A DNA stretch of 60,273 nt, filler included, from Nitrospinae bacterium RIFCSPLOWO2_12_FULL_45_22 (GTDB taxonomy: Bacteria; 2-12-FULL-45-22), in assembly GCA_001803565.1 (NCBI GenBank). It is 9 parts of 9 records of this genome, joined end to end, with 100 filler letters (N's around TTAATTAATTAA, not from the genome) between each part and the next. Parts side by side here need not be neighbours in the genome. Positions count along the whole stretch, not along the records: positions 54,179 to 60,273 come from MHDQ01000202.1; 8 more parts are not named here. The stretch is one strand, 5' to 3'. The notes beneath the pieces are model-generated. The model was not told the DNA's origin and did no database searches. It saw only the letters and a list, made by a program, of their open reading frames with translations. This document shows, piece by piece, positions 8,158 to 59,107 of the stretch (position 1 is its first letter; every line of letters starts with the position of its first letter). A program made the translations under genes and the position numbers.

Positions 8158-8159
8158 TT

Positions 8160-33893: not shown

Positions 33894-33894
33894 C

Positions 33895-34515: not shown

Positions 34516-34560
34516 TTTTGCACCTCCTCTGTGGTAGAGGGGGCTATTGCCCCCTTCAAC

Positions 34561-34728: not shown

Positions 34729-34763
34729 TTCGAGATCACCCCCTTCCTTTATTGGTTAATTAA

Positions 34764-34862: not shown

Positions 34863-34895
34863 TACACTGAAACGCTGATAGAGAGAGGGGCTACT

Positions 34896-35252
34896 ATGAA
34901 TGAAAATATTGCTGAGATAATCGGAAAGAGAATCAGGGCTAAAAGGGAGGAAATTGGCATGAGACAGAAGAGGCTTGCTGAAAAAGTGGAAGTGAGCCCT
35001 GCTGCAATCAATCAGTTTGAGAAAGGGGAGAAAAAGCCTTCTTCTGAGGTTTTGGCCCGTATCGCAACTGAACTTGGGGTTTCAACAGACTATTTGCTTG
35101 GTGCTTCTGATGAGGAGAAAATGTTCCTCAGCGGCAATGTGGTTGCTGCTTTCCGGGATTTTAAGGAATTAAGCAAGAAGGACAGAGAGATTATCTTAAG
35201 CCATATTGAATTTCTTAAGTCCAAGGCAAAAGAAAAGGAAAAAGGGAAATGA
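34896..35252 (+). CDS. XRE-family HTH repressor (CapH/ImmR-like)
   Basis: IGKRIRAKRE...QKRLAEKVEVSPAAINQFEKG...LGVSTDYLLG. Confidence 0.9.
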   Translation: MNENIAEIIGKRIRAKREEIGMRQKRLAEKVEVSPAAINQFEKGEKKPSSEVLARIATELGVSTDYLLGASDEEKMFLSGNVVAAFRDFKELSKKDREIILSHIEFLKSKAKEKEKGK

Positions 35253-36076: not shown

Positions 36077-36245
36077 CTTAATCCGATTTGAGACGAACCA
36101 AGAGGACATTGGCAAAAAGCTTGGCATTAGCCAGAGCATGGCTAGCAGGCTGGAAAAAGGCAAGAACCCATCAGTTGAGCTTTTGCTGAAAATAAGCGAG
36201 GTTTTCGGGAAGTCTATGGACTGGATACTGAAGCACGAAGGATAA
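36076..36245 (+). pseudogene. Second XRE-HTH fragment without a convincing start
   Basis: NQEDIGKKLGISQSMASRLEKGKNPSVELLLKISEVFGKSMDWIL. Confidence 0.55.
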
Positions 36246-36321
36246 GATAAGAACTTTGAACTGGTTGAGTAATGCATAAACTAAACCCATTTTCTTGATT
36301 TCCATACACTTACGATCATAG

Positions 36322-36397
36322 TAGAAGATAGGTTCAGGTCTTGAATCTTGACTTTTTCTCGATAGTCAGCAATGTCAAAAGGAAAGACCTGACCCCA
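36322..36397. repeat. 76-bp direct repeat, right copy
   Basis: Near-identical to 32370-32445. Confidence 0.9.
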
Positions 36398-36580
36398 TTG
36401 AACAGCCTTAAGGGCATCCCTGGATGCCTCAAAGAAGGCTAAAATTCCATCACCACCCACAGCCCATGCCTTGCCTCCAACCTTGTCTATCTCTTCCCTC
36501 AAGAGGTCTCTCTGTCGCTGGATGATGACGGCGGCCATATCGCCTTCTTCAGAGAAGATGGCAGTTGAGCCCTTCATATC
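36398..36580 (-). pseudogene. Class III adenylate/guanylate cyclase fragment interrupted by the repeat
   Basis: DMKGST...GGKAWAVGGDGILAFF; similarity stops at the repeat. Confidence 0.7.
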
Positions 36581-36680
36581 NNNNNNNNNNNNNNNNNNNN
36601 NNNNNNNNNNNNNNNNNNNNNNNNTTAATTAATTAANNNNNNNNNNNNNNNNNNNNNNNNNNNNNNNNNNNNNNNNNNNN

Positions 36681-37616
36681 TCTTGCCCTGTGAATCCTGT
36701 CCAATCCACCTATCCAAACGGTGCTTTCTTCAATGTCTTCTTTCTTTACGCCTTTTATTTTGCTCTCTGCCGGAATACGCCATGCATGATGGGCTTCATC
36801 GTTGATAATGACAAGATTTGTTGCATTCGCCATATCGCCTAACACTTCCCGCACATAAGCTTCATCGCTTTTGGCGCCCCGTTTATCAACTGTTTTTTTC
36901 CTGGCCAATCTTTCTTCACTATCCCAAGCGAGGGCGTGCCAGTTGATGATTTTTACCTTGCCTTGCCGCAAAGATTCCATCAAACCCGATGGAACGATGT
37001 TAAATTCTTCAAAGTAGTTTTCCTTGTCGAAAGGATTCAACACCGATAAGCGGTTGCGAACCGTCAGACCCGGCGCAACCACCAAAATATTTTTGGAGAA
37101 CCGTGTGTCTTTACTGTTGGTTACTTTATTCAGGACTTGCCATGCAATGAGCATACCCATGACAATGGTTTTGCCAGAGCCCGTGGCCATCTTGGTGCAC
37201 CATCGTGAAAAATCTCCACCATCGCTTTGGATGTCAATACCTGTGCGGTCGGCTTCCGGCGCTTCGGTAAGCCATATCAGGGTTTCGATGGCCTCTAACT
37301 GGCAAAAGAAAAACCTGCGGTCTTTACGTTCTTCGGGGTCTTGCCAGTGTTGCAGTAATCTTTTGGTAATGCCGGTAACACCCGGATAGCCCTGCTCACG
37401 CCATTTCTCTATTCTTGGACGGATTTTATTGACCAAATCAATTTCAATGAAAAGTCCCGGATCGTCAAATCCTTGTGCTTGTGGTGTGGCAACAACATAT
37501 CCTGCCGGTCTGCGGCCTTCATGTAGGATAAATTCCCGTGTATCCCTTATGTATTCCCAATACTGCTGTGGTTCTTCGTAAGGGGAATTGATGATGAGCT
37601 TGTCAATTTGCTTCAT
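36681..37616 (-). CDS. res: Type III restriction enzyme Res subunit (N-terminal part)
   Basis: LIINSPYEEP, FFCQLEAIET, KMATGSGKT, INDEAHH. Confidence 0.88.
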
Positions 37617-37714
37617 GGTTTCTTCTTAAGGGAAGGTATTTTTTCAAATTCAGTTATGAGAGATAGAAGGTCTTCAGCAACCGTCTGCCAGACAATATCT
37701 TCTTTACTGCACAT
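37613..37714 (-). pseudogene. Internally deleted HepT/DUF86 HEPN toxin
   Basis: MCSKED runs straight into IVWQTVAEDLLSLITEFEK; the RNase motif region is absent; overlaps the MNT stop. Confidence 0.65.
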
Positions 37715-38012
37715 ATTGCACCTCTGCCGACTCGACTACCTCCTTGCGGAAATAGCGGCTTAAATCTTCAGGCGTCCTCAAGTCCACTTTGCGCCCGATG
37801 ATTTCGCTTAATTCGATCTCCATGCCTGATAAGGTTATGAGACCCGGAATATGATCCGGCTCAAACTCAACGAGAAGGTCTATATCACTGTCTGGCCCAA
37901 AATCGCCATGCAGGCAGGAACCGAACAGCGACAGCTTGCGGATATGGTGCCGCTTGCAGAATCCATCGATCTCGTTTTTTGGCAATACTATATGACTTTT
38001 GCTTTCCATCAC
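37704..38012 (-). CDS. MNT (MntA-like) minimal nucleotidyltransferase antitoxin
   Basis: [22 protein letters not shown]...GRKVDL. Confidence 0.9.
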
Positions 38013-38088
38013 GCTATTCCTCCCTTCCCATACGATTATTGTGACCTGGTATCTTCGGTTATAAAATCCACACGCACCTCAATGGGAT

Positions 38089-38322
38089 TCATAAAGGGAA
38101 GAGGGGTTTCTTGGCCTCAAAGAACAATGAATCATCGATACTGCTTCCTTTCCATAGTCCTTTCAAAGAACCGCGCTTACCAGGCTTCTTAGTCTTGGAT
38201 ATGAATTCGGATGTTATCTGATGAATGACTTTGTAAAGTTTCGGCATCTTTTCTTCGGGAACCCTTCCCAGTTCTTTTATTATCCGCTTCTTATACGTCG
38301 AAAGCATAACTCCTCCTTTCAA
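38089..38322 (-). CDS. Small hypothetical protein, antitoxin-like
   Basis: Basic 70-77 aa ORF with RGSLKGLW; GGAGG RBS before MLSTYK. Confidence 0.5.
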   Translation of the reverse strand: MKGGVMLSTYKKRIIKELGRVPEEKMPKLYKVIHQITSEFISKTKKPGKRGSLKGLWKGSSIDDSLFFEAKKPLFPL

Positions 38323-38483
38323 TAATAGTCATTTGATTATATTCCTTAAGGATCATCTTTTCATATTCAGTCCTTGTCTCCATAATTTCCTCCATTATCC
38401 TCTTTTATATAATGCTTCAAGGTAACATTCAAAGGCCAGTAACTGCATAAGTACAACCATCTCAATTATTCTTCCCTCACCCC

Positions 38484-40544
38484 TTATACTTCCTTAGATG
38501 ATTCAGTTTCTTTTACCTCTTCAATTTTCCAATAGGACAAAGCTTCGTCTAAATCAAATCGTGTTTGTGAATCGGGTTTCCACGAAAGATGTGGTGCCGA
38601 TGATTGACTGTGTGGTGCTTTTTCAGGACGATCTACTTGTACTCGTGCCGGGACATGGAAACTACTACCAAGGACAATTGCTTCACCTGCGCTCAGGATT
38701 GTAATTTGATCCAGCAGACGGCGTGATTGGCTTGGGACAATCCTTCTAAAATGTTCGATATCGTCGGGATTCTGCAACCGGTGCATTATGAAGTTTGCGC
38801 ATTGACTTAACACCGTTGGGCTAATGTCTCCGGGTCTTTGACTGGCGACAATGAGAGAAAGCCCAAATTTACGTCCCTCTTTAGCAATTCGCTCAAATGC
38901 TTCACGGGAAACGCTTAGTCCCCTCGATTCATTTTGACGAACAGGGCAGACATAATTATGCGCCTCTTCAAGTACCGCTACCCAGGGTTCATGAAAACGC
39001 TTCATAGACGGAGCATGTTCACGAAGCTCCAGCAGCAAACGCCCTATAATACCACAAACATAGGGAAGGATTTCATAATCAATCATTGAGCAATCAATAA
39101 CACAAACGTCATTTCCTTCTGTTTCACTGCCTATGCCTAATTTCTCAAGCCAGTCTCGAAAACTCTTTATGCCGAGATTGTCATAATTAAAGAAACAATA
39201 CCAACGCTGGTCTTGAAGGCGGTTTCCGATACGTAACAGTAATCCTCTTAGAAATTGGCGAAAGCTTTGGTCGCCTTCTTCAATACTTGCAGCCTTATAA
39301 AGCTCCGTTGAATTTTGTAAATAATCAAGGCTGAAGTATATCGGTTTATTTGCAGATTGTTGTGTGATCTCCGGTTCGGCTGTAGTAAGATTTGAAAGAC
39401 CATCCCGTAACTGTTGCAGATTAGTTTTCAACTCTGGCTCATCTGCACCATAGGACTTGCTACACTTTTTTTCATCAGCCGCTACTATAGTATTATTAAT
39501 AGTCGCAATTAATTTCTTTATAGCATCGTTCAAGCCGATACCCTTCAAGTATCCATTGAAAGCCGACCATATTTGTTTGATATCTAGTGCCTTGTTAAAG
39601 GAGTTGCTATCAATCACTCCCAAAATATGGTTAATTCTTAAAATTGCCTCCTGAACATTATTTTTTATATTCCCTTTATCAAATTTACCACCCTTAGCAA
39701 CTGACCACAAATTGATAAGCGCTGGTTGCTGTGTTTGTTCCGCAACACTTAACCAAATACAAGCTTCGTGAGTATTCATGAGCCAGACAGGCAAACCCAA
39801 TTCTTTTCCATTAACGTATAAGTAGTTGGGTTTTCGGCCATCGCCTGGCTCTGGTTTCCCAAAAGCGCTGGCATATTCGCCGTTTATATCAAGGATAAAA
39901 ACTTTTGGCCGATTAGTTATACGATCTTTTTGTGATTGCTGTATAAGATGGCTTACCGTGTTGGATTTACCGGAGCCGGTATTGCCTACGATGGCGAGAG
40001 GTCTTGAGAACAAGTCATTGAAAGAACCCTTAACAATCTGGTTGCCAGGCGCAATAGCTATGCCTATTCGGAGGCCGCTATCGAAAGGTTCTCCATCTGG
40101 GTGGTCTTCTGGTTTATTTCTCTTAGGTGCATCGTCGAATAAGGCATCAAGAAGATATTTCTCAACAATCTCCGCTGGTGTATCCAAGGTTGGTAAAATA
40201 CTAATGCCTGGATCGAAACGATAAGATTCAGAACGAAATACAGGTTTTAAAGTTCCAAGTAATTGGATAGTTGCAACACGACGCGGCTTTGTGAGTTCTA
40301 AGGAAAGTTCTTCATTCGAGGGCTCGAAGCTATCGCGCGCATCTAAGTCTGTTACGATGCCAATAGCATATTGGCCAGCGCCTATGCTAAAAGACAGATA
40401 TGCATTTATTGAAATAGCAAGACTCGCACCTTGCAAGTTCGATAGATGGGCACGCACCGGGCTTTTTATTTCGGAAGCAAGTTCTACCTTAACACAAAAA
40501 CCATGTACGCCCACTACATGTCCGACGATCTTATCATTCATCAT
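38484..40544 (-). CDS. herA: HerA/DUF87 ATPase of a SIR2-HerA defence system
   Basis: HAS-barrel-like N-terminus, GNTGSGKS, LDINGEY, LEEAH, EGRKFG, SQRP. Confidence 0.9.
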   Translation of the reverse strand: MMNDKIVGHVVGVHGFCVKVELASEIKSPVRAHLSNLQGASLAISINAYLSFSIGAGQYAIGIVTDLDARDSFEPSNEELSLELTKPRRVATIQLLGTLKPVFRSESYRFDPGISILPTLDTPAEIVEKYLLDALFDDAPKRNKPEDHPDGEPFDSGLRIGIAIAPGNQIVKGSFNDLFSRPLAIVGNTGSGKSNTVSHLIQQSQKDRITNRPKVFILDINGEYASAFGKPEPGDGRKPNYLYVNGKELGLPVWLMNTHEACIWLSVAEQTQQPALINLWSVAKGGKFDKGNIKNNVQEAILRINHILGVIDSNSFNKALDIKQIWSAFNGYLKGIGLNDAIKKLIATINNTIVAADEKKCSKSYGADEPELKTNLQQLRDGLSNLTTAEPEITQQSANKPIYFSLDYLQNSTELYKAASIEEGDQSFRQFLRGLLLRIGNRLQDQRWYCFFNYDNLGIKSFRDWLEKLGIGSETEGNDVCVIDCSMIDYEILPYVCGIIGRLLLELREHAPSMKRFHEPWVAVLEEAHNYVCPVRQNESRGLSVSREAFERIAKEGRKFGLSLIVASQRPGDISPTVLSQCANFIMHRLQNPDDIEHFRRIVPSQSRRLLDQITILSAGEAIVLGSSFHVPARVQVDRPEKAPHSQSSAPHLSWKPDSQTRFDLDEALSYWKIEEVKETESSKEV

Positions 40545-41946
40545 TATCGTCCTTTTCCAAAGTGTTCGTGTTTAAGCTGCGCTTTAGTATTTGTTCCATC
40601 TTTTTTAGCTTAATCCAATCATTTAGCCATGATACATTTGGGAGAACGATCCTGGCAAAATCATCGAAAGTCGCAGGACTGTCGGGTGAGATTTCCTTAG
40701 ATTCTGAATATGGTGAAAGTAAATACACCCGCGCTCCCATTTGTTGATATTCTTTTAGTCTTTTAATCATGTTTTCATTTGGACGAGGGTCTACAACAAG
40801 CATCACAAAACTCGGATTAATAAGAGCGTCTTCAATAATCCTGTTTACGTGTTCGTCACCAAAACCATAACCCACGACAATTAAAAAGGTTTGTGGTTGC
40901 TGAAGAGTTTGATGAAAAGCACGAAAAATGTGGGCATAAGGTAAATCAAGAGTTTGAATATATTTATTTGAAGTTGGTAGAATCCCTACAGGGCCAAGTT
41001 CTTCTCGAAATATACTCTCAAAGTTATTAATGGTTTTGGATTTTTGGTATTCAGCTCGCCATTCTACAAACGGCGATAAGGACAGGTGTGAAGCAAGTAC
41101 ATCCTTGCCGCCATTTCTTTCCCACCAGTGAATCGAACCATGAAGTTTATAAAGCTGGATGAATTTATCATACCTCCGAACCCGACCTTCTGAGACCTCG
41201 CCGGGATAATACATATCGAGGCCATAACAAGAAGGTTCAAAGCGGCGTTCGGCTTGACCTACAAAACCATCTACATAATGAATCCCCAAATGATCCAATG
41301 CCTGCTCTATAAGAGTATCGTAATTCAAAGTGAAGACTTTCGCACGTCCCAAAGAAGGATCGCGTGAAATAAGCTTCGCAACAAATGCATGATGCCCTGT
41401 AGTTTCGTCACGTGGATTTGGCAATTGAAGAGAACACCAAACATAGATTGCACGGCGTAAATCGTTAAGAAGTGTGTTTAATTCCTTGGGATTTAACTGA
41501 ACCCCGTCTTTCCATTTGAAATCAGATATAGGAGATTCCTTCTGGGAGGTAAGAAATGCAGCATTGCTGAGATAGGAAAGCCACGCTTCAAATGAGGAGA
41601 TACCTGTTTCTTTTGGTGACGCCAATCTTTTATCTACAAAAGCATGTAAGTTTGCCTGTTTTTCATCGTTTTTTTTGTAATAGTCTTTAAGAAAAGAAAG
41701 AACCGACTCTTCTAATTTAGCCAACAGAAGCCCTTTATGAGCAACAGAGCAACCAGCCGCCATCAAGACAGAAACATTTTCCATACGAAGCCATTGAGAC
41801 AATAATGCTTGAAGCCTTGTCAATTCGGCATCTTCTGCGTCGACTGCCTCTGTGTTAGCGAGTTCAAGAATGTCGTTTTCATTAGGACCAGATAGTTTAT
41901 AACGTCTCATAATCGTTTGCCCATAAAGGGTTCCTTTTTTATGCAT
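40534..41946 (-). CDS. SIR2-like NADase of a SIR2-HerA defence system
   Basis: AAGCS, FTLNYD, KLHGSIHW, GYGFGDEHVN; overlaps the herA start. Confidence 0.9.
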   Translation of the reverse strand: MHKKGTLYGQTIMRRYKLSGPNENDILELANTEAVDAEDAELTRLQALLSQWLRMENVSVLMAAGCSVAHKGLLLAKLEESVLSFLKDYYKKNDEKQANLHAFVDKRLASPKETGISSFEAWLSYLSNAAFLTSQKESPISDFKWKDGVQLNPKELNTLLNDLRRAIYVWCSLQLPNPRDETTGHHAFVAKLISRDPSLGRAKVFTLNYDTLIEQALDHLGIHYVDGFVGQAERRFEPSCYGLDMYYPGEVSEGRVRRYDKFIQLYKLHGSIHWWERNGGKDVLASHLSLSPFVEWRAEYQKSKTINNFESIFREELGPVGILPTSNKYIQTLDLPYAHIFRAFHQTLQQPQTFLIVVGYGFGDEHVNRIIEDALINPSFVMLVVDPRPNENMIKRLKEYQQMGARVYLLSPYSESKEISPDSPATFDDFARIVLPNVSWLNDWIKLKKMEQILKRSLNTNTLEKDDNDE

Positions 41947-42020
41947 TCTACCTAATTATTTTCAAACTCTCAATCCCTCTTGCGTCAATGATCTTCACAG
42001 CCACCAGAGGATTATTCAGT

Positions 42021-42263
42021 CTAAATCAGTCCCTTCTTTTTTGCTTCAAGAACTTCCTTGTGTATCTCTTCTACCTTTTTATCTCCCCAGAACTTCTTTA
42101 TCTCCTGAACAGAATCTCCCTTACCCCTTTCAAAACTCACTATAAATCTCGTTGCATCCGCTTCCCCCATGTTATCTACAAGCAGATTCCATCCCTTCCT
42201 TACTATCTCATTTATTGCGACAGATTCCTCATTCTTTATCACGTCATACCTCCTTTTTGACAA
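42021..42263 (-). CDS. Small TA-associated protein following a PIN-gene 3' end at 42260-42302
   Basis: KGWNLLVDNMGEADATRFI...GDSV; upstream frame ends ICNPIIFVKKEV*. Confidence 0.6.
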   Translation of the reverse strand: MSKRRYDVIKNEESVAINEIVRKGWNLLVDNMGEADATRFIVSFERGKGDSVQEIKKFWGDKKVEEIHKEVLEAKKKGLI

Positions 42264-42402
42264 AAATTATAGGATTACATATCTTCATACCGCTTCCATG
42301 CTNNNNNNNNNNNNNNNNNNNNNNNNNNNNNNNNNNNNNNNNNNNNTTAATTAATTAANNNNNNNNNNNNNNNNNNNNNNNNNNNNNNNNNNNNNNNNNN
42401 NN

Positions 42403-43878
42403 AGCCATCATAAGCTCGTAACCATACACGCGGGGGAGCAGATGTTTAGGGACATACTCGTTCCAAGCTGCCTGAATTTGCGCCTCTGTTTTGCCCGCCT
42501 TCTTCCACTTTTCGATCATCGTTTTATGGATAACGTCAATAACCTCTACAATGAAAGTGGCTGTGCCGGTAGCAGGGTCAAGGATCAGAACGAACGGTTC
42601 ATCAGGTGCAACGCCATCTGGAATCTTGAGCTCAGGATTCCTCTTGACCATCTCACCCCATGTAACGGTCGAGGCAAGACCGTCTTCAAGCCCAAATTCG
42701 GTTTTCAGCAATTCATCAACGCTTCTTACAATATAGTAGACAACGGGCTGAGGCGTGTAGAAGACCCCTCGTTCAACCTTTTTCTTCTTGTCATACTCTT
42801 TGAGGAAAAGTTCATAGAAGTGGACGACCGGGTCCTCCTGCATTGTTTTCTTGCCGAAATCCCTCATGACTGCTTCAATGTGCGTGTCAGGTCTGTTCAA
42901 CAAATCTACAACTTCCTGTATCCCAAGTTCGTCAAAATCAATTTTACCTTTGCGACCGCCGACTTTTAAGAATGTACCGAGCATCTCTTTGAGGAAGGGG
43001 TTTGTGATAGGAACCATGTCGGCCAGATTATCGGCTATAACACCGGCAGGCCGTGAGACCCGGGCAGCAAGGAGTCCATAGGCAATAGTCTGTGCATACA
43101 TATCTGCAAAGTCGTCTTCATTCAGGTCATGGATAAGCGCTGTTTGAAAGGCCTTGTGCAATTTACGTAACGGACCACGCTCTGATTCTATTTTCAGAAT
43201 GAGATTGGCGCGTTGACGAATACTTTTGGCAAGATCGGCAAGGCGTATTGCCAGCTCTTTGGACGTGGTGATAACTTCCCTAGGGCGCAGTTCAAAGGCG
43301 TCTGACCATTTCTTGCGCCACGCCCCGGCATCATCTTCATCATCAGGCCAGCGCATCTTTTCATCAAGAGTATGAACAACATGGTCAATTTTCAACTTTG
43401 TGTCATCGTCATCCCAGCCGAGAACACGCAATGTCGGGAGGTCGCCGAAAAGCCGATCAGCAGGTTCGCTGAAATGGGCGAAGGTAATCTCACGATGTTC
43501 AGATTCGCCATAGGAGGAAATGAACAGGAGGTCGTGAAAGTTCCACACGGCCTGTTGGGATTTGTTCGCTGAGGCGCGTTTATTGATAACAAGAGAGCGC
43601 AGAATACGCCGCAAAACAACAATGGGTAACTGCTTCGGCTCAAAATTGATGAAAAAGATACCCCAAGGCTGCTTTGAGGAAAGAGGCCTGAGTTGCTTAA
43701 TCTCTTTTATCTTTACAGCGGTTTTCGCGTCTATGCCGAGTTCTTCCGGCTCGTAGTCAAAGGTCAGGTCATCAAAGTCGTCTGATTCAATAGGCCAGTC
43801 AAGTTCGTCACGGAGGTATTTTACAAGCGAAGGGAATGTTCTAATTTCCCTGAGCCTCTGAACCTTTTGTGATATCAC
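42403..43878 (-). CDS. N6-adenine DNA methyltransferase, type ISP/IIG-like (N-terminal part)
   Basis: FADMYAQTIAYGL, HFYELFL, GVFYTP, LDPATGTATF, YGYELM. Confidence 0.85.
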
Positions 43879-43892
43879 ACAACCCTCCCTTC

Positions 43893-46800
43893 TTAAGACA
43901 GTTCCATCCAGGCCTTAAGCGTGGCCTTTACGCCCACAGGTGCCTGAACTTTCTTAAAGTATGAATTTTTAATATGCTTTTCTACAATCGCCCTAATTTC
44001 AGAAAGATTTTTTTCTGGCAATGTCAGATGCCGTGGAGTATCTGGCTTACTCCGGATTAACTGAACGATTTTAGTATCATCTTCAATAATTGAAGCTTTC
44101 TCAATGTCATACAAATACCAGCGGGTAAAGCCCGCTTCATCTGTCCATTGCTCAAGCTCTGGTTTATCCTGATCTTTTGCTGCTTCTGGGCCAGGAAGGG
44201 CGTAACAGAAGAAAACTCCTTTTGCGTTTGCTTTTGGATGCTGTTTGCCGCTAAAAACCTTGCCGGGAAGCATTGAGAGCCGTTCAGTCAGATCAGGATA
44301 ATCTTTTAAAAGCTGCTGATATTCAAGATGCATTTCCTCAATTGGCGTTGTTGTACCTTCATAGGCATGACTAAATTCTTTGAGGGCATCATAATCGTCT
44401 TCAGGGCGTAGAAGCTTTTTCCCTTCAATGCCAAATGTCTTGGAAATGCGCAGAGTCTTATGGGATACCCTTGTGTAAAGACGCAGAAGAATTTCCAATT
44501 CATCCGGAGGCAAAAAGTTCCAGTAGACGATTTTGCCTCTCAATGGGTTTAAGTCAGGATGATCGCTTAAGAGCCTATCTTCAATGCCCGGATTCATACG
44601 GCGGTCAACACGACCTATCCTCTGCATGAGACGAACCGGATTCCAATGTAAATCATAATTGATCAGCCTCATTGCATCCTGCAGGTTAAGACCTTCCGAA
44701 AGAACATCTGTGGAAATAAGAACCCTGATTTCCTCTTTTCCTTGGGCTTTAATTTCTGCACTTGAGGAGTCATTATAATACGGTGAAAACCGCTGAATGA
44801 CTTCACTTCTGTCACGCTTGGAACCACTATCTATCTGCTCAACGCCCTCAATTCCTACATCTTTAATTTGTTTATGTATGTAACGTGCTGTTTCAGCAAA
44901 TTCGCTGAAGATAAGAACTTTTTCTTTTTTAAGAACCGGATCGCTCTTAAGGAGTTTAATAAGAGCTTTCAGTTTATCGTCATGTTGAGGTTTGAACTTT
45001 CTTAATTCTTCGAGAAAATCACATATTTCATCAAGATCGAGATAGGTATCATCCAATATTTCCTCAACCTTATACTCTTCTCTGCTTAAATATTCAATGT
45101 CTTCCAGCATTTCTTCAGTGACGATGTCCTCATCGGCATCTTCAGGTTCCTCGTCACCGAATAACTCTTGTTGATGTTCATGCACATAGTTTATTAGTTC
45201 AGCATTTTGGAGCTTCCAGCGTTCAAGTCTCTTTTTCTCATGTTCGGTTTCACTATGTTTTGTTACCCAAGCAAGTAGTTTAAGCAATAACCGTTCACAT
45301 GAGAGCCCGAAAGAATAGGCTGAACTCTCAAAACGTTTCAGAAATTGTATCCGTATAAGGCTAACAACCTGTTTTTGCCGATTTTCAACAAAGTGGTCTA
45401 TTGATTCATCCGACCCCTTATAGTATGCCAGTGGATAATAGATACCGAGGACAAAAAGGGGTTTATCTTTTGCAAACGCTTTTTCAACTTTATCAAGCAG
45501 ACGGCCATATGTTTTTTTGACTGAATAATCAACAACACGCGGGGCTTCACGGGAGGGGAAGATTGTAGCACTTCCTCCTTGTTGTATTTGGCTCTGTTTT
45601 GCATATGCCCTGCTTCTCTGGACAACCAGATGACGAAATAGAGTATCTGTCATAAGGGCACGCTCGGCTTCAGCCATATTAAGCTCAAGAAGAAGTTGAT
45701 CGCTTGGCGTAATTGTTTTCTTAAGCTCATTTTCCATACGGATAAAATGACCTCTAAGTGAATGTATCCCAAGAGTTGATTTAAAATAATCTTCACGTTG
45801 GCGAGTAAAAAGCTCAACCATATGGCGGAAGTCATCAAGTCGGTTGTTAATAGGTGTTGCGGTTATCAAATAAAGTTCTTTTGAACCTTTGAGTCCCTCT
45901 ATAATGTCGAAAAGAAGACGATACCGTGATGGTCTTCGTTCACCGATTCCTTTAATACCGGGGTTGCGGAAGTGATGGGCTTCATCAATGATGATTGCGT
46001 CAGCCATTTCCTTGATTCGCTCAAACCGATAAGGGAAATCACCACCTCTGCCAAGGTCTGTATGGTTGAAGATAACGAGATTACTAAAATCACCACCTTT
46101 AACACCACCTATATGACGTAGATAGCGTTTTAGATCTCTTTCCCAAACATCTGCTCGTGTTGATTTTGGAACGAATAAGGCAACCCTTTTCCTGTCATGC
46201 ATTACAAGACGCTCTATGAGCATCAACCCTACAAATGTCTTGCCTAATCCGACACCATCACAAATAAATGCGCCACCATGCTGTCGGGCGATTTTAATTA
46301 ATGCCTGATAGCCCTCTTTTTGATATTGATCCAAAATTGGATACATTTTCGATTCGGTTTGTTCCCATTGTGACGGGGTCATTTCATAGCTGCGGAAATA
46401 TTCCTGCAGCGCCTTTGCATAGACTTCAAAGGGAGAATATTCTCGGGTATGCCGTTCAATAACCTTCAGAATGTCCTCACTTATTGGCTCTGCCTCATTC
46501 CAATGGCGCTCATACCATTCCTGAAGTAACTCTACTTCGCGTCTAATTTGAATATTTAATTCAACATTTTCCGTAAGTCCCGGATAGGTAAAGTTACTCG
46601 AACCCACGAGAGCTGTAGAGCCGATTACTGCATGTTTGGCATGAGTTATATAAGCCTTGGCGTGAAATTTATCTTTTGTATAAATGCGGCATTCAATCTG
46701 GCTTTTTCTGATAGCATCAACGATAGCTGGTACACCTGTGAGAAAATCGTTTTTCTCTTTCTCTCTTTCAATGCTGGCATCGAGAATTTGCCTGGCTGTT

Positions 46801-47051
46801 TCAATTCCTGCGAGGAGTGCTTTCTTAGTTCGCTTTGATACCTCGTCTCCCATGAGAATTCTAATTTTTTCCAATTTCTGCCACTGACCATCAAGGGCTA
46901 AGAGAGCACCGATTTCAAAGTAACCAGTAGCAATATCAAACTTGTGAGCGAGATCTGTCCACTCATGAAGGTAATTTCTCACCTTCCAATCCTGATCGCT
47001 GTTATCAACGATAAAGAGGTCGGAACCTTGTAGTTTTGACTCTTTTTTCAT
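43893..47051 (-). CDS. PLD nuclease-SNF2-like helicase fusion
   Basis: FHAKAY...GSSNFT (HKD-like), DGVGLGKT, IDEAH, TATP, SEGLNLQ, QRIGRVDR. Confidence 0.9.
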   Translation of the reverse strand: MKKESKLQGSDLFIVDNSDQDWKVRNYLHEWTDLAHKFDIATGYFEIGALLALDGQWQKLEKIRILMGDEVSKRTKKALLAGIETARQILDASIEREKEKNDFLTGVPAIVDAIRKSQIECRIYTKDKFHAKAYITHAKHAVIGSTALVGSSNFTYPGLTENVELNIQIRREVELLQEWYERHWNEAEPISEDILKVIERHTREYSPFEVYAKALQEYFRSYEMTPSQWEQTESKMYPILDQYQKEGYQALIKIARQHGGAFICDGVGLGKTFVGLMLIERLVMHDRKRVALFVPKSTRADVWERDLKRYLRHIGGVKGGDFSNLVIFNHTDLGRGGDFPYRFERIKEMADAIIIDEAHHFRNPGIKGIGERRPSRYRLLFDIIEGLKGSKELYLITATPINNRLDDFRHMVELFTRQREDYFKSTLGIHSLRGHFIRMENELKKTITPSDQLLLELNMAEAERALMTDTLFRHLVVQRSRAYAKQSQIQQGGSATIFPSREAPRVVDYSVKKTYGRLLDKVEKAFAKDKPLFVLGIYYPLAYYKGSDESIDHFVENRQKQVVSLIRIQFLKRFESSAYSFGLSCERLLLKLLAWVTKHSETEHEKKRLERWKLQNAELINYVHEHQQELFGDEEPEDADEDIVTEEMLEDIEYLSREEYKVEEILDDTYLDLDEICDFLEELRKFKPQHDDKLKALIKLLKSDPVLKKEKVLIFSEFAETARYIHKQIKDVGIEGVEQIDSGSKRDRSEVIQRFSPYYNDSSSAEIKAQGKEEIRVLISTDVLSEGLNLQDAMRLINYDLHWNPVRLMQRIGRVDRRMNPGIEDRLLSDHPDLNPLRGKIVYWNFLPPDELEILLRLYTRVSHKTLRISKTFGIEGKKLLRPEDDYDALKEFSHAYEGTTTPIEEMHLEYQQLLKDYPDLTERLSMLPGKVFSGKQHPKANAKGVFFCYALPGPEAAKDQDKPELEQWTDEAGFTRWYLYDIEKASIIEDDTKIVQLIRSKPDTPRHLTLPEKNLSEIRAIVEKHIKNSYFKKVQAPVGVKATLKAWMELS

Positions 47052-51874: not shown

Positions 51875-52681
51875 TTAATCCCCTCTCAATTGACTCATAG
51901 GTCTCCTGTTGTTTAGTTCGTCTTCTATCGTAGGCGTGCCTGTTGATTTGTAGGTGGTGTGTCTGTCAAGATATAGGCTCATAGGTACCCCGTATTCCTT
52001 GATATATTGCTTGAAACTGTCCATAGCAGGTATTGTGCCTTCGTATTCGTAAAATCGGGCAAATACTCTGTTTGTGGCATCATCTATATACGCCATCAGC
52101 ACAAGTTCATCACCTCTTCCCTCCAGCCAGTCATGATGCGAGCCATCCATCTGAACCATCTCTCCTAAGTAATCTCTTCTCTCCCGCCATTGTCTATGTG
52201 CCCTAACTTTGCGAACCTTCTTCCAATCTCCAGATTCTGTAAGCCAGTTCCGTAATGTCTCTCTGCTTATCTTAACCCCCTCTATCTCCAAAAGCTTCTC
52301 TGCTGCCAGCGTTGGCCCAAAACCTTTGTACTTTTCCCGGTAAAGTTTTATCACCTTCGCCTTTACCTTTCTGGGAAATTTCCTGCTTGAAGGCGTGCCC
52401 CTGGATTTATGTAGGACCCCTCTATCACCCTCAATCCTTACCCTCTTTATTATCCTCCTTACCTGCCGATCACTTAATGAAAGTATCTCCACTGCTTCTA
52501 CCTGCTTTAATACACCATCCAGCACCTTCTTAATTACGTGTAACCGCTTTAATTTCCTCTGACTTACCACGATAATGTCCTTTCTCGCCATAATCCCCTC
52601 CCTTGAACTGGAGAGAATTATAACTTTGCCATAGGACATTTCTAAATTGGTTATTTAGGACATTATCATTTTGGTATTACA
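51875..52681 (-). mobile_element. Truncated ISNCY (IS202-like) element; transposase 52591-51875
   Basis: HTH, GFGPTLAAEKL, QMDGSHHDW, IDDAT, LYLDRH; left end TGT with two AATGTCC subrepeats; C-terminus lost. Confidence 0.85.
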
Positions 52682-52824
52682 GATTTTTTAAGGTATTTTT
52701 AAGCTATATCCCAAAATTCATCTTGACTCTGCCGCTACAACTTGATATAAAGCTTTTTAGCTATTGGATCCCCTGGGAAATCCTCCTTAGACACCAACTG
52801 CTGAACCGCATATAAACTGTTATC

Positions 52825-53085
52825 TTGGACATTATTCTAGAGCAAGATAAGTGGCGAAAGCTTATCGCGCTAGAAGTAAGGAAAGATAAGGGGGAGAGCA
52901 AGCTCTCTTTGGAGATCAATCAGGATAGGCTAAAGTCTTTGGAGAAGAGGATGGGAAAAAACATCCTCTTTACCGATAGAGACCATTGGAGCACTGATGA
53001 GATAGTCTCTGCCTATAGGGGCAAATACAGGATAGAGGATGCCTTCAAACTAATGAACCATAGTTCATTAGCTCAACAATATTGA
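52825..53085 (+). pseudogene. IS1634-like transposase fragment
   Basis: GKNILFTD...WSTDEIVSAYRGKYRIEDAFK (Y-x2-R/K-x3-E-x2-F). Confidence 0.7.
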
Positions 53086-54078: not shown

Positions 54079-54178
54079 NNNNNNNNNNNNNNNNNNNNNN
54101 NNNNNNNNNNNNNNNNNNNNNNTTAATTAATTAANNNNNNNNNNNNNNNNNNNNNNNNNNNNNNNNNNNNNNNNNNNN

Positions 54179-54482: not shown

Positions 54483-55577
54483 TTGTACCTTTACCGCGAA
54501 TATAACCTAAGCATGAAAATGGTGACCCAACCCAAAACAGATCTCTTGGCTCTCCTTGCGCAGGATTTTTCCTTTAAGGGAGAAACTTCTCATCCTATGC
54601 ATAATACTCACGCCTTTGCCGCTAAGTTTCCACCCCAATTGCCACGGGTGTTTATTGAGTCGTTGACTAAACCTGGAGATATTGTTCTGGATCCTATGTG
54701 CGGCTCAGGTACGACAGTCGTCGAGGCTAGTCATCTGGGTAGAATTGGGATTGGGATTGACATGGATATACTGGCTGTAAAAGTATCGCAGGCAAAGACG
54801 TGTGCCCTGGGGCCTCCTTTGGTTCGGCATACCATCAATCAAGTGGTTGACCATGCGACCTTTAATTATCGCGCTCGCACTTTGGATATTAGGTCTTTTT
54901 TAAAAGAAAACTATGGACCCAAAGTGATATCTTTTTTCCAGTATTGGTTTCGAAAAGAAACAATTGAACAACTTGCCTGTGTGGCAAAGGAAATTAAACG
55001 GCTTACCAATCCAGCCATCAGAAACTTCTGTGAGGTGGTATTTTCCTCTATCATTGTAACCAAAAGTGGCGGCATATCGCTTGCCAGAGACCTAGCCCAC
55101 TCCCGTCCCCATAAGGACGGATCAAAAAAGGTAAAAAACGCTATTGAGTCTTATGCAGAAAAGGCCGAGAAGATACTAGCCGCTATGGATAAAGCTAGAG
55201 GAGTTTCAGGCAGAGCGGTAATGCTACGTGGAGATGCAAGATCACTTCCGCTCGCAAAAAATAGTGTTGATTTGATTGTTACATCACCTCCTTATGCCAA
55301 TGCCATTGACTATATGAGGGCCCATAAGTTCTCTATGTACTGGCTAGGGTTGGATTACGATTACTTGTCAAATCTGCGAAAGCGATATATTGGGGCTGAG
55401 GTGAAGCTGGATTTGCAGGAATTTCCCCATAGGCTAGCTTCAGAGGTCATAAGAAAAGTATCGGGAAAGGATATAAGAAAGGCAGGGATTCTTCTTAGAT
55501 ATTTTCAGGATATGGAAATGGCATCGAAGCCCGCATTAACCAGGAATATGTCATACTTTTATATAAGCCTTTTATAA
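54483..55577 (+). CDS. DNA methyltransferase (SPPY, likely N4-cytosine), probably C-terminally truncated
   Basis: HAFAAKFPPQ, LDPMCGSGTT, VTSPPY; the expected RVLK segment after YFQDM is missing. Confidence 0.8.
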   Translation: MYLYREYNLSMKMVTQPKTDLLALLAQDFSFKGETSHPMHNTHAFAAKFPPQLPRVFIESLTKPGDIVLDPMCGSGTTVVEASHLGRIGIGIDMDILAVKVSQAKTCALGPPLVRHTINQVVDHATFNYRARTLDIRSFLKENYGPKVISFFQYWFRKETIEQLACVAKEIKRLTNPAIRNFCEVVFSSIIVTKSGGISLARDLAHSRPHKDGSKKVKNAIESYAEKAEKILAAMDKARGVSGRAVMLRGDARSLPLAKNSVDLIVTSPPYANAIDYMRAHKFSMYWLGLDYDYLSNLRKRYIGAEVKLDLQEFPHRLASEVIRKVSGKDIRKAGILLRYFQDMEMASKPALTRNMSYFYISLL

Positions 55578-55881: not shown

Positions 55882-56028
55882 TCAGTGCTTGCGGCTATTG
55901 AATAATTTATCGTTGAAGTCATTCAACCCACATTCCGCTGTTTTCCCCTGACTGATACACCCTGGCAGGCTAGGACATTCAGCAACCCAATAGCCATCCT
56001 CACCTGGATAAATTAAAACCTGTCTCAT
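55882..56028 (-). pseudogene. Truncated HicB-like gene at the start of a second cassette
   Basis: GGAGG RBS; MRQVLIYPGEDGYWVAECPSLPGCISQGKT, then divergence. Confidence 0.7.
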
Positions 56029-56056
56029 TGTCTTACCTCCTTAAAGCCGCCGTTTC

Positions 56057-56129
56057 GCCTAACGTTCAAGGCTAAAAGAAGTCCCGCAATGTGGGATTTG
56101 GATGTCAATCTTTTAGCCTGTTGTTAGGC
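56057..56129 (-). mobile_element. Integron attC site closing the R-M cassette
   Basis: GCCTAAC-aacaggctaaaaga...tcttttagccttgaac-GTTAGGC. Confidence 0.8.
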
Positions 56130-56145
56130 GATGTGTTTTCTTGCA

Positions 56146-57267
56146 TCACTTGTCAGACTCTGCCGCCTTTCGCAAGACAAGAAATGCTTCTTTCAGAGGT
56201 TGACTTACGGAACTGTCAGGCTCAGCCAAAACAAGACTTTGGTAAATGTCTAAGAAACTCGTGCGGTATCGGTGAAAGAAGTGAAGGAAATGTCTGACAA
56301 AGCCGATGCAGTCCAGAACAGCAATCTCGATGCCTGACTTGTTGTAGACACTCTTAGCGTACTCATTCACTTCGTACTCGATGACATCGGTTGTGATGAA
56401 GATATAGTTGTCAACTCGATACTTAAGGGTGGAAATCTTCTTAAGGGCATTCTCGATGTCAACGATTGTTACCCTTTTGTCCTTCATCTCATAGCAGGTG
56501 ACTATCTGATCGTCGTTGATTAGGGTAACTTCGACATCTCCGATTGATCCGGTCTGGCTATCTGCGGCGGTGTGCGATTGGAGTGGCAAAGCAGTCTCGC
56601 CAATGCGGTCTTTGACGGAAAGATAGGCAGCGGCAACCATTAAAACTGGAAGCCTACTTGAATTCTTGCTGCTGAGATTTTGCTGAAGAAGAGTAACGGT
56701 TTGCTCGGAGGACAAGGGAAGCGTGTCTTCAGAGTGCTTGAGTTCTCGGAGAAGCTGCTTCATCCGAGTCTCGTTTTCGCTTTTAATGATGAGTAGGAAG
56801 CGAATGATTTCTTTAAGGGCATCGGAAGGAGCTACCTTGCCACGCTGTACGAGGTCGAGCAACTCAAGGACATTCGTATAGACTTGCCGTGGCCTACCGA
56901 CGAGAACCAAATCAGTCGTGAGCTTGCGGTCGATGTTTCTGAATGCAGGAGTGAGGAAAGCAGTTGTTGGGTTGGTGGGCAACTTGTATTTGATTACGAA
57001 AGGTTCAACGAACTGCTCATCGTAGGCACGCCCGGAGTAGGTGCCTTTGCCACCAATCTCCGTGTAGGGCTTTCTGATGTCTACTTTGGAATCGTCGAGC
57101 TTTCCAAGAAGACAAGCCATCAGAAACCGAATTGGAGCCTTGTTTGTAAGACAACGACAAACAAATTCAATCTTAGCTCGAAGTTCAGCACCATCAATGA
57201 AGCACTTGTCTGGTTTGGGGCGGACATCTTGGTAATATTTTTCCAGTAGCGCTGCAGGATCAGTCAT
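56146..57267 (-). CDS. Type II restriction endonuclease (SacI-like)
   Basis: SGRAYDE, HTAADSQTGSIGDVEV...CYEMK; start MTDPAA overlaps the MTase stop. Confidence 0.75.
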   Translation of the reverse strand: MTDPAALLEKYYQDVRPKPDKCFIDGAELRAKIEFVCRCLTNKAPIRFLMACLLGKLDDSKVDIRKPYTEIGGKGTYSGRAYDEQFVEPFVIKYKLPTNPTTAFLTPAFRNIDRKLTTDLVLVGRPRQVYTNVLELLDLVQRGKVAPSDALKEIIRFLLIIKSENETRMKQLLRELKHSEDTLPLSSEQTVTLLQQNLSSKNSSRLPVLMVAAAYLSVKDRIGETALPLQSHTAADSQTGSIGDVEVTLINDDQIVTCYEMKDKRVTIVDIENALKKISTLKYRVDNYIFITTDVIEYEVNEYAKSVYNKSGIEIAVLDCIGFVRHFLHFFHRYRTSFLDIYQSLVLAEPDSSVSQPLKEAFLVLRKAAESDK

Positions 57268-58180
57268 TGTGCGAAGCATCCCTTTGGGAAAAGAGAGTGT
57301 AAGCTTTTTTGAAATTGTGAATATCGTAGTTAACCCAGAGAACTTCTTGACGCTTCTCTTTGGTGGAATGAATTGTTTTGAGCAAACCGAGATGTTTCTT
57401 CCATTTGGGTACAGGATACAATTCATCCATAAGGTCGCATTGGTAATTCGAGATAGCCACGAGACCTTTGACCGAGTTTAGAGCTTTAGCAAGTTCGCGA
57501 TGTTCGTCGTCGGTCATTTCATAGCCATAAGACTTTGTGTCTCCTCTGGTACCGTGAACGTATGGTGGATCGCAGTAGAAAAGCGTTTCTTTGGAATCGT
57601 AAAGGCGGATTACATCAATAGCGGGACGGTTCTCTATTTGTACCCGGAGGAGTCTTTCTGCGATGAAAGTTAAGTCTTCAATTCCGCCAAGCCAGCGACT
57701 AATCACCCCGCTCATTCCATTTCTGCTCGTGTTCTTGCAGTTTGCCCATCGACCTATGGTTGCGGTCTGTGCCAAACCCGTTCTAACCTGACGAGCACGA
57801 ACATAGAAACGCCTTGCCCGTTCAAAGCTTGATAGGTTGGGATCCAGTTGACAGGCTTTGGCAAATTCCTCTCGTGAAAATGGAGTCAGTCCAATGGCCT
57901 CAATTAGCTTTGCCTTTTCTTCACGTAGCACCTTGAAGAAATTGACAACCTCGCCGTCAAGATCGTTGTAGGTTTCGACAGGGGATGAAGGACGGTTGAC
58001 TAGGATAGCGGCTGAGCCCCCGAAAGGCTCACAATAATGGTAGCACTCGGGCAACAATGGAAGTAGCCAATCTAGATGCGAGAACTTTCCGCCGTACCAG
58101 CCGAAAGCGATAACCTTCCGAGAAGCCTTGAGTTGCGATATTGGTGCGGGAACTCTCCTCGCTCCTTCTCTCACTGCCAT
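57260..58180 (-). CDS. Dam/D12-class DNA methyltransferase
   Basis: WYGGK, EPFGGS, YNDLD, YCDPPY. Confidence 0.9.
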   Translation of the reverse strand: MAVREGARRVPAPISQLKASRKVIAFGWYGGKFSHLDWLLPLLPECYHYCEPFGGSAAILVNRPSSPVETYNDLDGEVVNFFKVLREEKAKLIEAIGLTPFSREEFAKACQLDPNLSSFERARRFYVRARQVRTGLAQTATIGRWANCKNTSRNGMSGVISRWLGGIEDLTFIAERLLRVQIENRPAIDVIRLYDSKETLFYCDPPYVHGTRGDTKSYGYEMTDDEHRELAKALNSVKGLVAISNYQCDLMDELYPVPKWKKHLGLLKTIHSTKEKRQEVLWVNYDIHNFKKAYTLFSQRDASHND

Positions 58181-58277
58181 TCTGATGTCCTTATGTAATG
58201 GATAGCGGTGTTTGATAGCACTAATCTCCTAAATTAACGTGACTATTTCAAATTTGGAGAACTGCAAAGAACATATT

Positions 58278-58290
58278 GCCTAACTAGTTC
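58278..58290 (-). mobile_element. attI-like core site GTTAGGC just after the recombinase stop
   Basis: Complements GCCTAAC of the attC at 56129-56123. Confidence 0.6.
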
Positions 58291-59107
58291 ACAGACGACT
58301 GTGTCGTCTTTTCTTAAAAATTGGAGGGATAGGCGACAATGTCGGATATCCCTCCTTTCTACCTCCTTCCTTCTGTAAAATCTGATCCAAGGGGTTTTTT
58401 ATTCTCATCAAGTCTTTGTTGCTTACATGCGTGTAAATCTCTGTGGTTTTGGAACTTACGTGCCCTAATAATTCCTGTATATACCGCAGGTCAATCCCAT
58501 TCTCCAGTAGATGTGTAGCGAATGAACGTCTGAGACTGTGTATCGTCACTTTTTTCTTAACGCCTCCTCGATTACATGCCATTTCAAATATCCTTTGAGC
58601 AGTTCTTATTGAAATATGTCTTTCTTTACCCGGGCCGGGAAATAGCCAGAGGGCTGGTTTATACCTATCCAAATATTCCTTTAATATTTTTAATGCAGAT
58701 TCTGAGAGCAGAGTATATCTATCCTTCCTGCCTTTTGCACCTCTTACATGAATCAGCATACGCTTGCTATCAATATCTTCTGGCTTCAATCTCACTACTT
58801 CGCTTACTCTAAGCCCTGCCGAATAAACAAACATTAATATCGCCTTATGTTTCACATTATCTACTAATGTTAAAATCTTTGCAACTTCTTCCTGGCTCAA
58901 TACAATCGGTAATTTCTTGTCCTTTCGTGGCCTTTTCACTTCATATACGAACTTTTTTTTGAGCATCGTTCCGTAATAAAACTTCAGGGAGTTGATGGCC
59001 TGATTTAGGGTAGATGTTGCTGCTCCCTTCTCTTCAGAAAGAGTTATGGCTTTGATGTGTTGGATATAGCAAGTTCCTATCTTTTCCGTACCCATTTGCT
59101 GGTACAC
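58289..59107 (-). CDS. Tyrosine recombinase (Xer/IntI-related), N-terminus apparently truncated
   Basis: KKLPIVLSQEE, GLRVSE, KGRKDR, HSLR, LLGH, EIYTH; only the end of the SAM-like domain (STLNQAINSLKFYY) is present. Confidence 0.85.
   Translation of the reverse strand: MYQQMGTEKIGTCYIQHIKAITLSEEKGAATSTLNQAINSLKFYYGTMLKKKFVYEVKRPRKDKKLPIVLSQEEVAKILTLVDNVKHKAILMFVYSAGLRVSEVVRLKPEDIDSKRMLIHVRGAKGRKDRYTLLSESALKILKEYLDRYKPALWLFPGPGKERHISIRTAQRIFEMACNRGGVKKKVTIHSLRRSFATHLLENGIDLRYIQELLGHVSSKTTEIYTHVSNKDLMRIKNPLDQILQKEGGRKEGYPTLSPIPPIFKKRRHSRL

Follow-up and report, generated by a model that had tools for sequence, protein, structure and literature searches.

Can a tyrosine recombinase that lacks the insertion specific to integron integrases (IntI) stand at the head of a cassette array of integron type? 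This question was raised by a 60,273-nucleotide stretch of DNA from Nitrospinae bacterium RIFCSPLOWO2_12_FULL_45_22 (nine parts of assembly GCA_001803565.1 joined end to end), which in its whole length is called the window here. In it, a truncated recombinase gene was followed by an attI-like region, a restriction-modification (R-M) module and an attC-like hairpin. Judging from its sequence and those of its relatives, the locus is quite probably the decayed platform of an integron-type gene-capture system, whose recombinases form an Xer/IntI-like family (best model NF040815) without the IntI insertion. The elements of the platform, all on the minus strand, are given below; L and P numbers denote homologue loci and proteins.

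58289..59107, minus strand: tyrosine recombinase open reading frame (ORF), 5'-truncated, 272 aa (Pfam Phage_integrase, E=1.7e-40)
58291-58289, minus strand: recombinase stop codon TGA, read from the sequence
58323..58355, minus strand: attI box A, a 33-bp imperfect palindrome with 16-nt arms that are 88% complementary, kept in L002, L003 and L067
58285..58312, minus strand: attI box B region, with a 7-bp-stem palindrome (58293-58309), GTGAAC (58292-58287) and a 2-nt spacer abutting the crossover
58284-58278, minus strand: junction core GTTAGGC, five bases past the recombinase stop, with the putative crossover at G58284/T58283
56063..58283, minus strand: cassette 1, 2221 bp, R-M module with its own attC (from the boundary analysis)
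57260..58180, minus strand: D12-class (Dam-family) N6-adenine DNA methyltransferase, 306 aa (PF02086, E=2.3e-22; TIGR00571)
56146..57267, minus strand: SacI-family type II restriction endonuclease, 373 aa (PF09566 RE_SacI, 25.7 bits, cut-off 19.3)
56050..56137, minus strand: attC-like hairpin site (family covariance model, 77-89 bits)
55882..56062, minus strand: start of cassette 2, with a ribosome binding site and a 48-codon HicB/UPF0150-like stub (ORF 56028-55882, weak match)

The initial annotation had read most of this layout from the sequence, namely a GTTAGGC core a few bases after the recombinase stop, a complete R-M cassette, an attC of the form GCCTAAC...GTTAGGC and the start of a HicB-like cassette, and each of these was found again, the last with weak evidence (UPF0150-like at 16.3 bits, where the cut-off is 27.3; matches by tblastn to stretches of L064, L011 and L008, E 8e-6 to 8e-4). 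The attC-like site consisted of R'' (GCCTAAC, 56129-56123), a 3-nt spacer, a 10-bp L stem with a 31-nt loop, a 5-nt spacer (TGAAC) in the 3' half and R' (GTTAGGC, 56063-56057). Its outer stem reached 8 nt further, to 56137, and both consensus cores of attC (RYYYAAC and GTTRRRY) were matched exactly. The heptamer by itself was not significant, as the plus strand of the window contained GTTAGGC three times and GCCTAAC four times. The opening of cassette 1 had also been said to complement the closing R'' box, and over 15 nt it did so at 13 positions, while the adjacent R' reached only 10 of 15; the chance of a 13/15 match within 2.2 kb was estimated at about 0.002. Because of this match, and because the attI architecture was kept in relatives, the site was taken to be more than a chance occurrence.

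A strict scan of the window for further complementary R''/R' pairs gave just this one site, and the family covariance model found only one attC in the 60 kb, even with its filters off; a long array in the window was dropped on these two results. Downstream of the HicB-like stub, neither a cognate R''/attC nor a continuation in another frame was found. In cassette 1, the start of the endonuclease ORF overlapped the methylase stop (57267 vs 57260). The two adjacent genes, with family matches above the cut-off or significant (PF02086, TIGR00571 and PF09566), form a predicted type II R-M system. Full-length relatives of the endonuclease (53-54% identity) occurred on five plasmids, with the annotation 'restriction endonuclease, SacI family' in four; the annotation under the match also gave DNA adenine methylase in three of the five, and an equivalent methylase and endonuclease pair was found on Nostoc plasmids.

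What kind of recombinase precedes this cassette? The window copy aligned just to residues 143-371 of the 374-aa homologue P0002 (stretch 59047-58361), so that about 142 N-terminal residues are gone; it had neither the HARP-like N-domain described below nor half of the SAM-like domain, and the last ~21 codons of its ORF were read-through into attI. The remaining catalytic residues were intact, and a protein from elsewhere (P0001) was 99% identical and equally short. As the initial annotation had cautioned, this N-terminally truncated copy is probably inactive. Its best models were NF040815, an XerA-type model named 'site-specific tyrosine recombinase/integron integrase' (196.6 bits, cut-off 220), and the integron integrase model TIGR02249 (187.1 bits in two stretches, cut-off 265). 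Truncation accounts for the first of these scores being under its cut-off; among seven family recombinases tested with NF040815, six scored 224.7-244.1. Full-length members (~350-385 aa) reached 214-226 bits with TIGR02249, always in two stretches.

The distance from KGRKDR to WLFPG, put earlier at about 20 residues, was 23 in the window copy, and the alignment to VchIntIA (IntI4) was split there, with 16 window residues facing 58. A full-length relative shared 32% identity and a C-terminal PLD motif with IntI1 (from a plasmid), which had 41 gap residues more at the IntI additional domain. The insertion was missing in all aligned family members, with gaps of 41-42 residues against IntI1 and VchIntIA. 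A Foldseek search with the full-length model returned IntI, XerA and Cre folds only.

The family was large. At least 8000 candidates were scored, all at E<=1e-10. The best 120 homologues were 66-99% identical, came from many bacterial and archaeal phyla and were often on short contigs. Identity to the reference member P0002 was 46-74% across bacterial and archaeal metagenome-assembled genomes, which points to horizontal spread. Several copies were present per genome, and given this copy number and the context of the genes, dimer resolution at dif by the family recombinases is unlikely. A multi-copy, insertion sequence (IS)-like element consisting of the recombinase only was considered for the short contigs and rejected, since the breaks in assembly are better accounted for by arrays and by the presence of several platforms in a genome. 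Second family copies adjoined the first on the same strand in L054 (9348-10445), L067 (8974-9906) and L068 (8484-9626); the one in L067, an extra family-type ORF of 311 aa, scored 210.9 with NF040815, under the cut-off.

Do attC-like arrays follow the gene in these relatives? The scan of species-representative genomes yielded at least 540 relatives or loci, of which 79 loci (825 kb in total) were kept. DNA-level relatives of the window hairpin were present downstream of the recombinase in several of them, and a covariance model was built from 7 sites and rebuilt from 38 matches. At E<=0.1 this model gave 87 matches in the loci, every one on the recombinase strand. At E<=1e-3, the 263 kb searched downstream gave 72 matches and the 480 kb upstream gave 4; where the downstream DNA reached 2 kb or more, 28 of 32 loci had a site, and where it reached 1 kb or more, 32 of 38. 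The proposed check, whether attC-bounded cassettes follow homologues of the recombinase, was thus positive, and the claim that the recombinase points into the array was borne out at the level of the family. Divergent transcription of the gene from its array, as for intI, was accordingly not seen; exceptions to it are also described for classical integrons in the consulted part of Cury et al. (2016).

Further tyrosine recombinases were rare in the 825 kb. Only four such ORFs were found, three of them the tandem family copies and one distant, and none was IntI; with up to 10 kb covered on each side of the gene, the TIGR02249 cut-off was reached by none of the recombinases in the loci. In the window, no other integrase domain was present among the 49 ORFs scanned, a search covering this part of the bin.

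The structure of the sites was conserved more than their sequence. In the L stem, all 10 pairs showed compensatory double changes and 92.7% of cells paired. For the whole 17-pair structure, 86.5% of cells paired, against 34-39% when the partners were slid by 1-3 columns. The sites measured 57-152 nt between the TAAC and GTTA cores, with the arms 23-111 nt apart, and some R' boxes read GATA.. in place of GTTA... Counted on the model alignment, extra nucleotides were absent from 85 of 87 L'' arms and 87 of 87 L' arms, so that extrahelical bases were not a feature of these sites; the unpaired spacer was asymmetric, with 2-3 nt in one arm and 5-7 nt in the other.

The two strands of the sites differed. 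The antisense strand was more stable in 79 of 86 sites (mean difference -2.3 kcal/mol) and contained 1.88 G:T pairs against 0.27 on the sense strand, whose GC skew was -0.16. Outer-stem position 11 was mismatched (G/A) in 35 of 41 cognate pairs, so that the antisense strand has G.T there and the sense strand C.A. According to the part of Nivina et al. (2016) consulted, the recombinogenic bottom strand of classical attC folds better, has more G:T pairs and is skewed to purines, and stability, G:T content and skew of the family's antisense strand match these properties. The same source gives two or three extrahelical bases for classical attC, in the arm opposite AAC in the bottom strand. A comparison with class 1 integrons used three attCs located in L081-L084 (aadA1, aac(6')-IIc and dfrA1); the family model, run against the class 1 arrays, gave aadA1 at 10.7 bits (E 5.7) and in antisense orientation only, and aac(6')-IIc and dfrA1 were not found.

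If the cassettes had once been circles, each R'' should complement the start of its own cassette. This was examined in 48 pairs of consecutive sites by reverse-complementing R'' together with 8 nt of flank and comparing the result with the sequence that follows the G of the previous R'. The own cassette start matched at 6.2 of 11 variable positions, the adjacent R' at 4.0 of 11 and random pairs at 3.9 of 11 (Wilcoxon p=3e-5); at least 9 of 11 was reached by 11/48 cognate pairs and by 1/48 adjacent ones. This complementarity of R'' to the own cassette start points to cassettes that left as circles and were inserted again by a crossover at G|TT.

Between consecutive sites, 44 intervals of 185-2784 bp were measured; 39 of them had their longest ORF in sense and 4 in antisense, and one had no ORF. 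The arrays were made up of mostly co-oriented cassettes, each closed by an attC-like site and bearing the signature of circular permutation, as integron arrays are. Of the 43 ORFs, 38 were scanned for cargo, once the 4 in antisense and one that was 46 aa long had been set aside, and a Pfam family was assigned to 22 of the 38 and to none of the other 16. Six toxin-antitoxin (TA) toxins (BrnT, ParE, PIN and three DUF4258), four DNA methylases, a KAP NTPase, a uracil-DNA glycosylase, a radical SAM protein and a Mutator-family transposase were among the cargo, with others. Close relatives carried different cassette content at the same junction.

A cultured example was found on a plasmid of Chryseobacterium sp. 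SNU WT5 (L080), which encodes a 347-aa member with 39% identity over 96% of P0002, the N-domain included. Small co-directional genes lay behind this recombinase, with one model match at E 0.003, and complementarity of cognate start and R'' was visible by eye. In antisense, the locus also carried genes for an IS110-family transposase (13278-14279) and for the reverse transcriptase of a group II intron (15744-17060); by eye, both elements seemed to sit directly after R''-like sequences, ..GGTAAC and ..GGTAAT. These insertions recall the IS1111-attC and group IIC-attC elements of classical integrons. Table S1 of IntegronFinder 2.0 lists 0 complete integrons, 0 clusters of attC sites lacking integron-integrases (CALINs) and 0 In0 for this strain.

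An attI was sought with R'' of the first site, by looking for the cognate start of cassette 1 with up to 3 mismatches in 36 loci. The start was found in 23 of them, in 20 at 68-141 nt past the recombinase stop. The family attI shared an order of elements: box A, a palindrome; a spacer of ~20 nt resembling CCCAAATTTGGA; box B, again a palindrome; and (T)GAAC, which 2 nt separate from G|TTA. All these elements were carried by the window, and the similarity between the window, L002, L003 and L067 stopped exactly after the G of the junction core. The attI thus lies beside the recombinase gene, with putative insertion at G|TT (58284|58283 in the window). That the 33-bp palindrome is the only true core site of the recombinase, with attC unrelated to it, was considered and rejected, as relatives show it as box A of a conserved attI before cassettes. 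In L018 (1504-2912), the attI boxes and the cassette start were located 1.4 kb past the end of the recombinase match, compared with the usual ~120 nt.

How might such an enzyme recognize a folded site? The N-domain (residues 1-70 of full-length members) was predicted as beta-beta-alpha-beta-beta-alpha-beta (AlphaFold2 model, pLDDT 91), and its profile matched 3599 representative proteins at E<=0.001. Among the matches were SNF2 helicases that Pfam calls HARP (P0162, 45.3 bits, E 1e-24; P0213, 30.5 bits, E 6e-22). P0141, a 374-aa protein that matched the N-domain and has no integrase domain by Pfam, scored 25.0 bits with PF07443. Foldseek of the N-domain gave the 'substrate recognition domain' of SMARCAL1 HARP (4o66, probability 0.90, TM 0.50) and also the archaeal XPB N-domain, the matches ranging from E 0.08 to 0.7. 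Five recombinases of 583-789 aa (P0125, P0126, P0179, P0238 and P0214) had 3-4 tandem HARP-like N-domains before the SAM-like and catalytic domains. HARP binds forked DNA, and helix I2 of IntI itself contacts the extrahelical bases. SMARCAL1 is described in the available part of a review as regressing forks and migrating junctions, and roles in recombination are given for the IntI insertion and the extrahelical bases in the part of Demarre (2007) consulted. Structure-specific recognition, for which IntI depends on its insertion and on the extrahelical bases, may here be supplied by the HARP-like domain.

A variable linker joined the N-domain to the SAM-like domain (alignment A1, columns 120-185). 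In several homologues it read PSPLAGEGxGEG, which resembles translated repeat DNA.

Taken at family level, the excess of sites downstream (72 vs 4), the circular-cassette signature, the conserved attI and the lack of any recombinase passing TIGR02249 support the proposal of the initial annotation that this is a non-canonical integron run by an Xer-like enzyme. Three other explanations were weighed against it. In the first, a canonical IntI encoded at some other place acts in trans on what are ordinary integron arrays (CALINs), and the Xer-like gene either is a neighbour that does something else (dimer resolution, for example) or is an array-targeting element. CALINs without a nearby intI are common, and recombinases without intI_Cterm near attC were judged not to be IntI in the part of Cury et al. 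(2016) at hand; the search for IntI was also confined to the loci. Within these, however, no IntI was found up to 10 kb on either side in any of the 79. The R''/R' consensus, the site length (57-152 nt, where the definition of attC gives 57-141 nt) and the strand bias are like those of classical attC, but the family sites are without the extrahelical bases that IntI reads, the family model missed class 1 attCs, and IntegronFinder 2.0 reported nothing for the one complete genome with a member. L026 and L055 have sites on both sides of the gene; overall, the gene stood at the array start and on the array strand in 28 of 32 loci, with sites almost exclusively downstream, and a conserved attI lay at a fixed distance past its stop, with a crossover that fits cassette 1. 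Service by an IntI in trans is considered improbable.

The second explanation is recombination between double strands, as at Xer/dif or phage att sites, where the palindromic attC would be a duplex core site and the likeness to integrons one of layout only. A recombinase without the insertion for single-strand features would suit such a reaction, and the R arm (15 bp) and L arm (10 bp) are sized like Xer binding arms; as a duplex, however, the attC arms are 23-111 nt apart and therefore too far from each other for one core site. Palindromes are present in attI as well, yet the strong covariation keeps pairing rather than sequence, the strand difference in G:T pairs and the mismatch at position 11 would be of no consequence without folding of single strands, and the HARP-like domain points to branched or folded DNA. 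Ancestral IntI activity is said to have been reported by Escudero in 2016. The duplex explanation seems slightly less probable again than the first. Finally, that the hairpins are intergenic terminators or REP (repetitive extragenic palindromic)-like repeats beside an unrelated integrase, with no mobility of cassettes, is very improbable, for although they sit between co-directional genes, share their loop sequence among close relatives and are in part flagged by a terminator scan (as is box B), their R'' arms are complementary to the start of the own gene unit 0.2-2.8 kb upstream, their TAAC/GTTA cores are kept within the 57-152 nt range with an asymmetric spacer, their antisense strand is the stabler one in 79 of 86 sites, and cassette content varies at the same junction between close relatives.

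Several results weigh against the integron-type interpretation itself. Its support is comparative throughout, and in the window there is a single attC and both the recombinase and the second cassette are truncated. The training sites of the models came from these very loci, although the models are blind to position and gene strand, and the covariation alignment was fitted to the model. Four of the 32 loci with at least 2 kb downstream were siteless at E<=1e-3 (L036, L057, L072 and L078), 13 of 36 loci were without a clear attI match, and 37 of 48 cognate pairs fell under 9 of 11. Canonical IntI was looked for within the loci, whole genomes being outside that search. The spacer surplus was on the AAC arm of the antisense strand, opposite to the position of the classical extrahelical bases, and the strand in use is therefore not certain. 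The link to HARP was weak on the recombinases (PF07443, 13.4-23.1 bits against a cut-off of 25), and the Foldseek E was only 0.08 for 4o66. L026 and L055 have arrays upstream of the gene (47-3087 and 6715-9551, respectively), which suggests tandem platforms or a recombinase gene inside an array; in L026, the last upstream site lay 88 nt before the start of the tblastn match to the recombinase.

Under the integron-type interpretation, an intact platform would consist of the recombinase, an attI on the same strand and compact, mostly sense cassettes, each closed by an attC-like hairpin. Recombination of attC x attC would release a cassette as a circle, which would then enter at attI, with the crossover at G|TT (AA|C on the antisense strand). 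The family recombinase would presumably carry out this reaction, and the antisense strand would probably be used as a folded hairpin, as in classical integrons. In place of extrahelical bases and an IntI insertion to read them, recognition could use the 15-bp R arm, the 10-bp L arm and the unpaired, asymmetric spacer, with the HARP domain perhaps as the reader.

Compared with classical integrons, the family shared the platform of recombinase, adjacent attI and array, the compact sense cassettes, cores like RYYYAAC and GTTRRRY, the L stem, the unpaired spacer and variable loop, the G|TT crossover and the complementarity of R'' to the own cassette start. The stabler antisense strand richer in G:T pairs, the TA and defence cargo and the insertion of IS110 and group II intron elements at sites (L080) were further likenesses. 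Unlike classical integrons, the family has recombinases without the ~25-42-residue IntI insertion that fail TIGR02249 and carry an N-terminal HARP-like domain, attC sites with no extrahelical bases and a spacer of 2-3 nt vs 5-7 nt, an R arm of up to 15 bp with a conserved mismatch, an attI of two palindromic boxes, and several copies per genome, and it was missed by IntegronFinder 2.0 in one complete genome. Since layout, crossover, cassette logic and strand bias are common to both while the insertion and the extrahelical bases are absent, the system is best placed as an integron variant, not as a member. Orientation alone has parallels, as in the inverted Treponema/Spirochaete integrons and the archaeal ones intI points towards, or is upstream of, attI. 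The archaeal IntIs have the additional domain, and their attI is downstream of intI (Ghaly et al. 2022); four archaeal contigs of the loci were absent from data S1-S10 of that study, a set that possibly does not include their genomes.

The XerA/XerC/XerD resolvases (NF040815, PDB 4a8e, 5hxy) were the best sequence match and resemble the family in having all catalytic residues and no insertion in the catalytic domain; the family differs by its multiple copies, its HARP-like N-extension and the cassette arrays behind the gene in place of a single dif. In CTX-phage integration, the substrate of XerCD is the phage attP, folded as a single strand into a hairpin that resembles a core site unpaired in its centre. 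An Xer-type enzyme without the IntI insertion thus works there on a folded single strand, as proposed for the family; unlike it, that system has a single phage site at dif and the host XerCD, with no arrays, dedicated recombinase or HARP domain. The 'Integron-like' (IS91-/IS3-associated) and 'Cand' subgroups of Smyshlyaev et al. (10.1101/542381), compared by description, also lie near IntI and Xer and have no insertion, 'Cand' being from candidate phyla; in the available part of that work they are assigned to IS elements or dimer resolution and given no link to attC arrays or cassettes. The only transposase among the 38 cassette ORFs scanned was the Mutator-family one, in contrast to the IS91-associated subgroup. 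No description of the family, of attC arrays behind an Xer-type recombinase or of a HARP-recombinase fusion was found in the literature, in which subscription journals and some supplements were thinly covered, and the family appears undescribed.

Around the platform, an alpha/beta hydrolase gene (minus strand) ended at 59151, upstream of the recombinase ORF. On the other side, 300 nt past the HicB stub and antisense to the array, a permuted N6_N4 DNA methylase was encoded at 54483-55577 (plus strand). By tblastn (E 1e-34 to 8e-25), relatives of this methylase lay behind the recombinase in L038, L006 and L074, in the last two inside cassettes, and it may be an inverted or stranded cassette. A pair of N runs (54079-54178) covers the DNA immediately to its left; in all, 19 N runs were seen at 5306-60038, about every 5 kb and mostly as 44 N, 12 bases and 44 N, which resemble masking or scaffold gaps. 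Transposase-like fragments (51875-53085; an HTH_32/HTH_28 ORF and an 86-aa ORF) lay between the platform and a defence island, and may relate to the truncation of the array. The defence island (31626-47051) contained PIN, ThiF with a prokaryotic E2, a helix-turn-helix protein with M78 peptidase, ResIII, a nucleotidyltransferase, a HerA-like DUF87 protein with SIR2_2, and N6_Mtase with a PLD/SNF2 helicase.

For the window itself the meaning is modest. Its recombinase has lost ~142 residues and its second cassette is cut short, and the R-M cassette is therefore a fixed defence pair at the edge of the defence island, movable at most in trans; the R-M system would have arrived there as a cassette and is now stranded. 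For the family, we lean towards a second, large integron lineage, with HARP-fused Xer/IntI-like recombinases that never had or have lost the insertion and attC hairpins without extrahelical bases, spread horizontally among uncultured bacteria and archaea of many phyla and mostly overlooked by integron software and by the definition of integrons as it stands. Such a lineage could be sister to the classical integrons or represent the state from which they arose; it could also have arrived independently at a structure-specific recombination of single strands. The field holds the IntI insertion to be necessary for cassette recombination and uses it to define integrons, and a family of at least 540 loci shows every genomic hallmark of cassette capture without it. 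If this holds true, the definition of integrons would widen, their origin from Xer-like enzymes would become directly testable, and some cassette arrays without an integrase would be explained. The combination of HARP and tyrosine recombinase would be a new structure-reading module for single-strand DNA recombination tools, and the family would constitute an unseen cross-domain route of gene flow that carries defence, TA and methylase genes.

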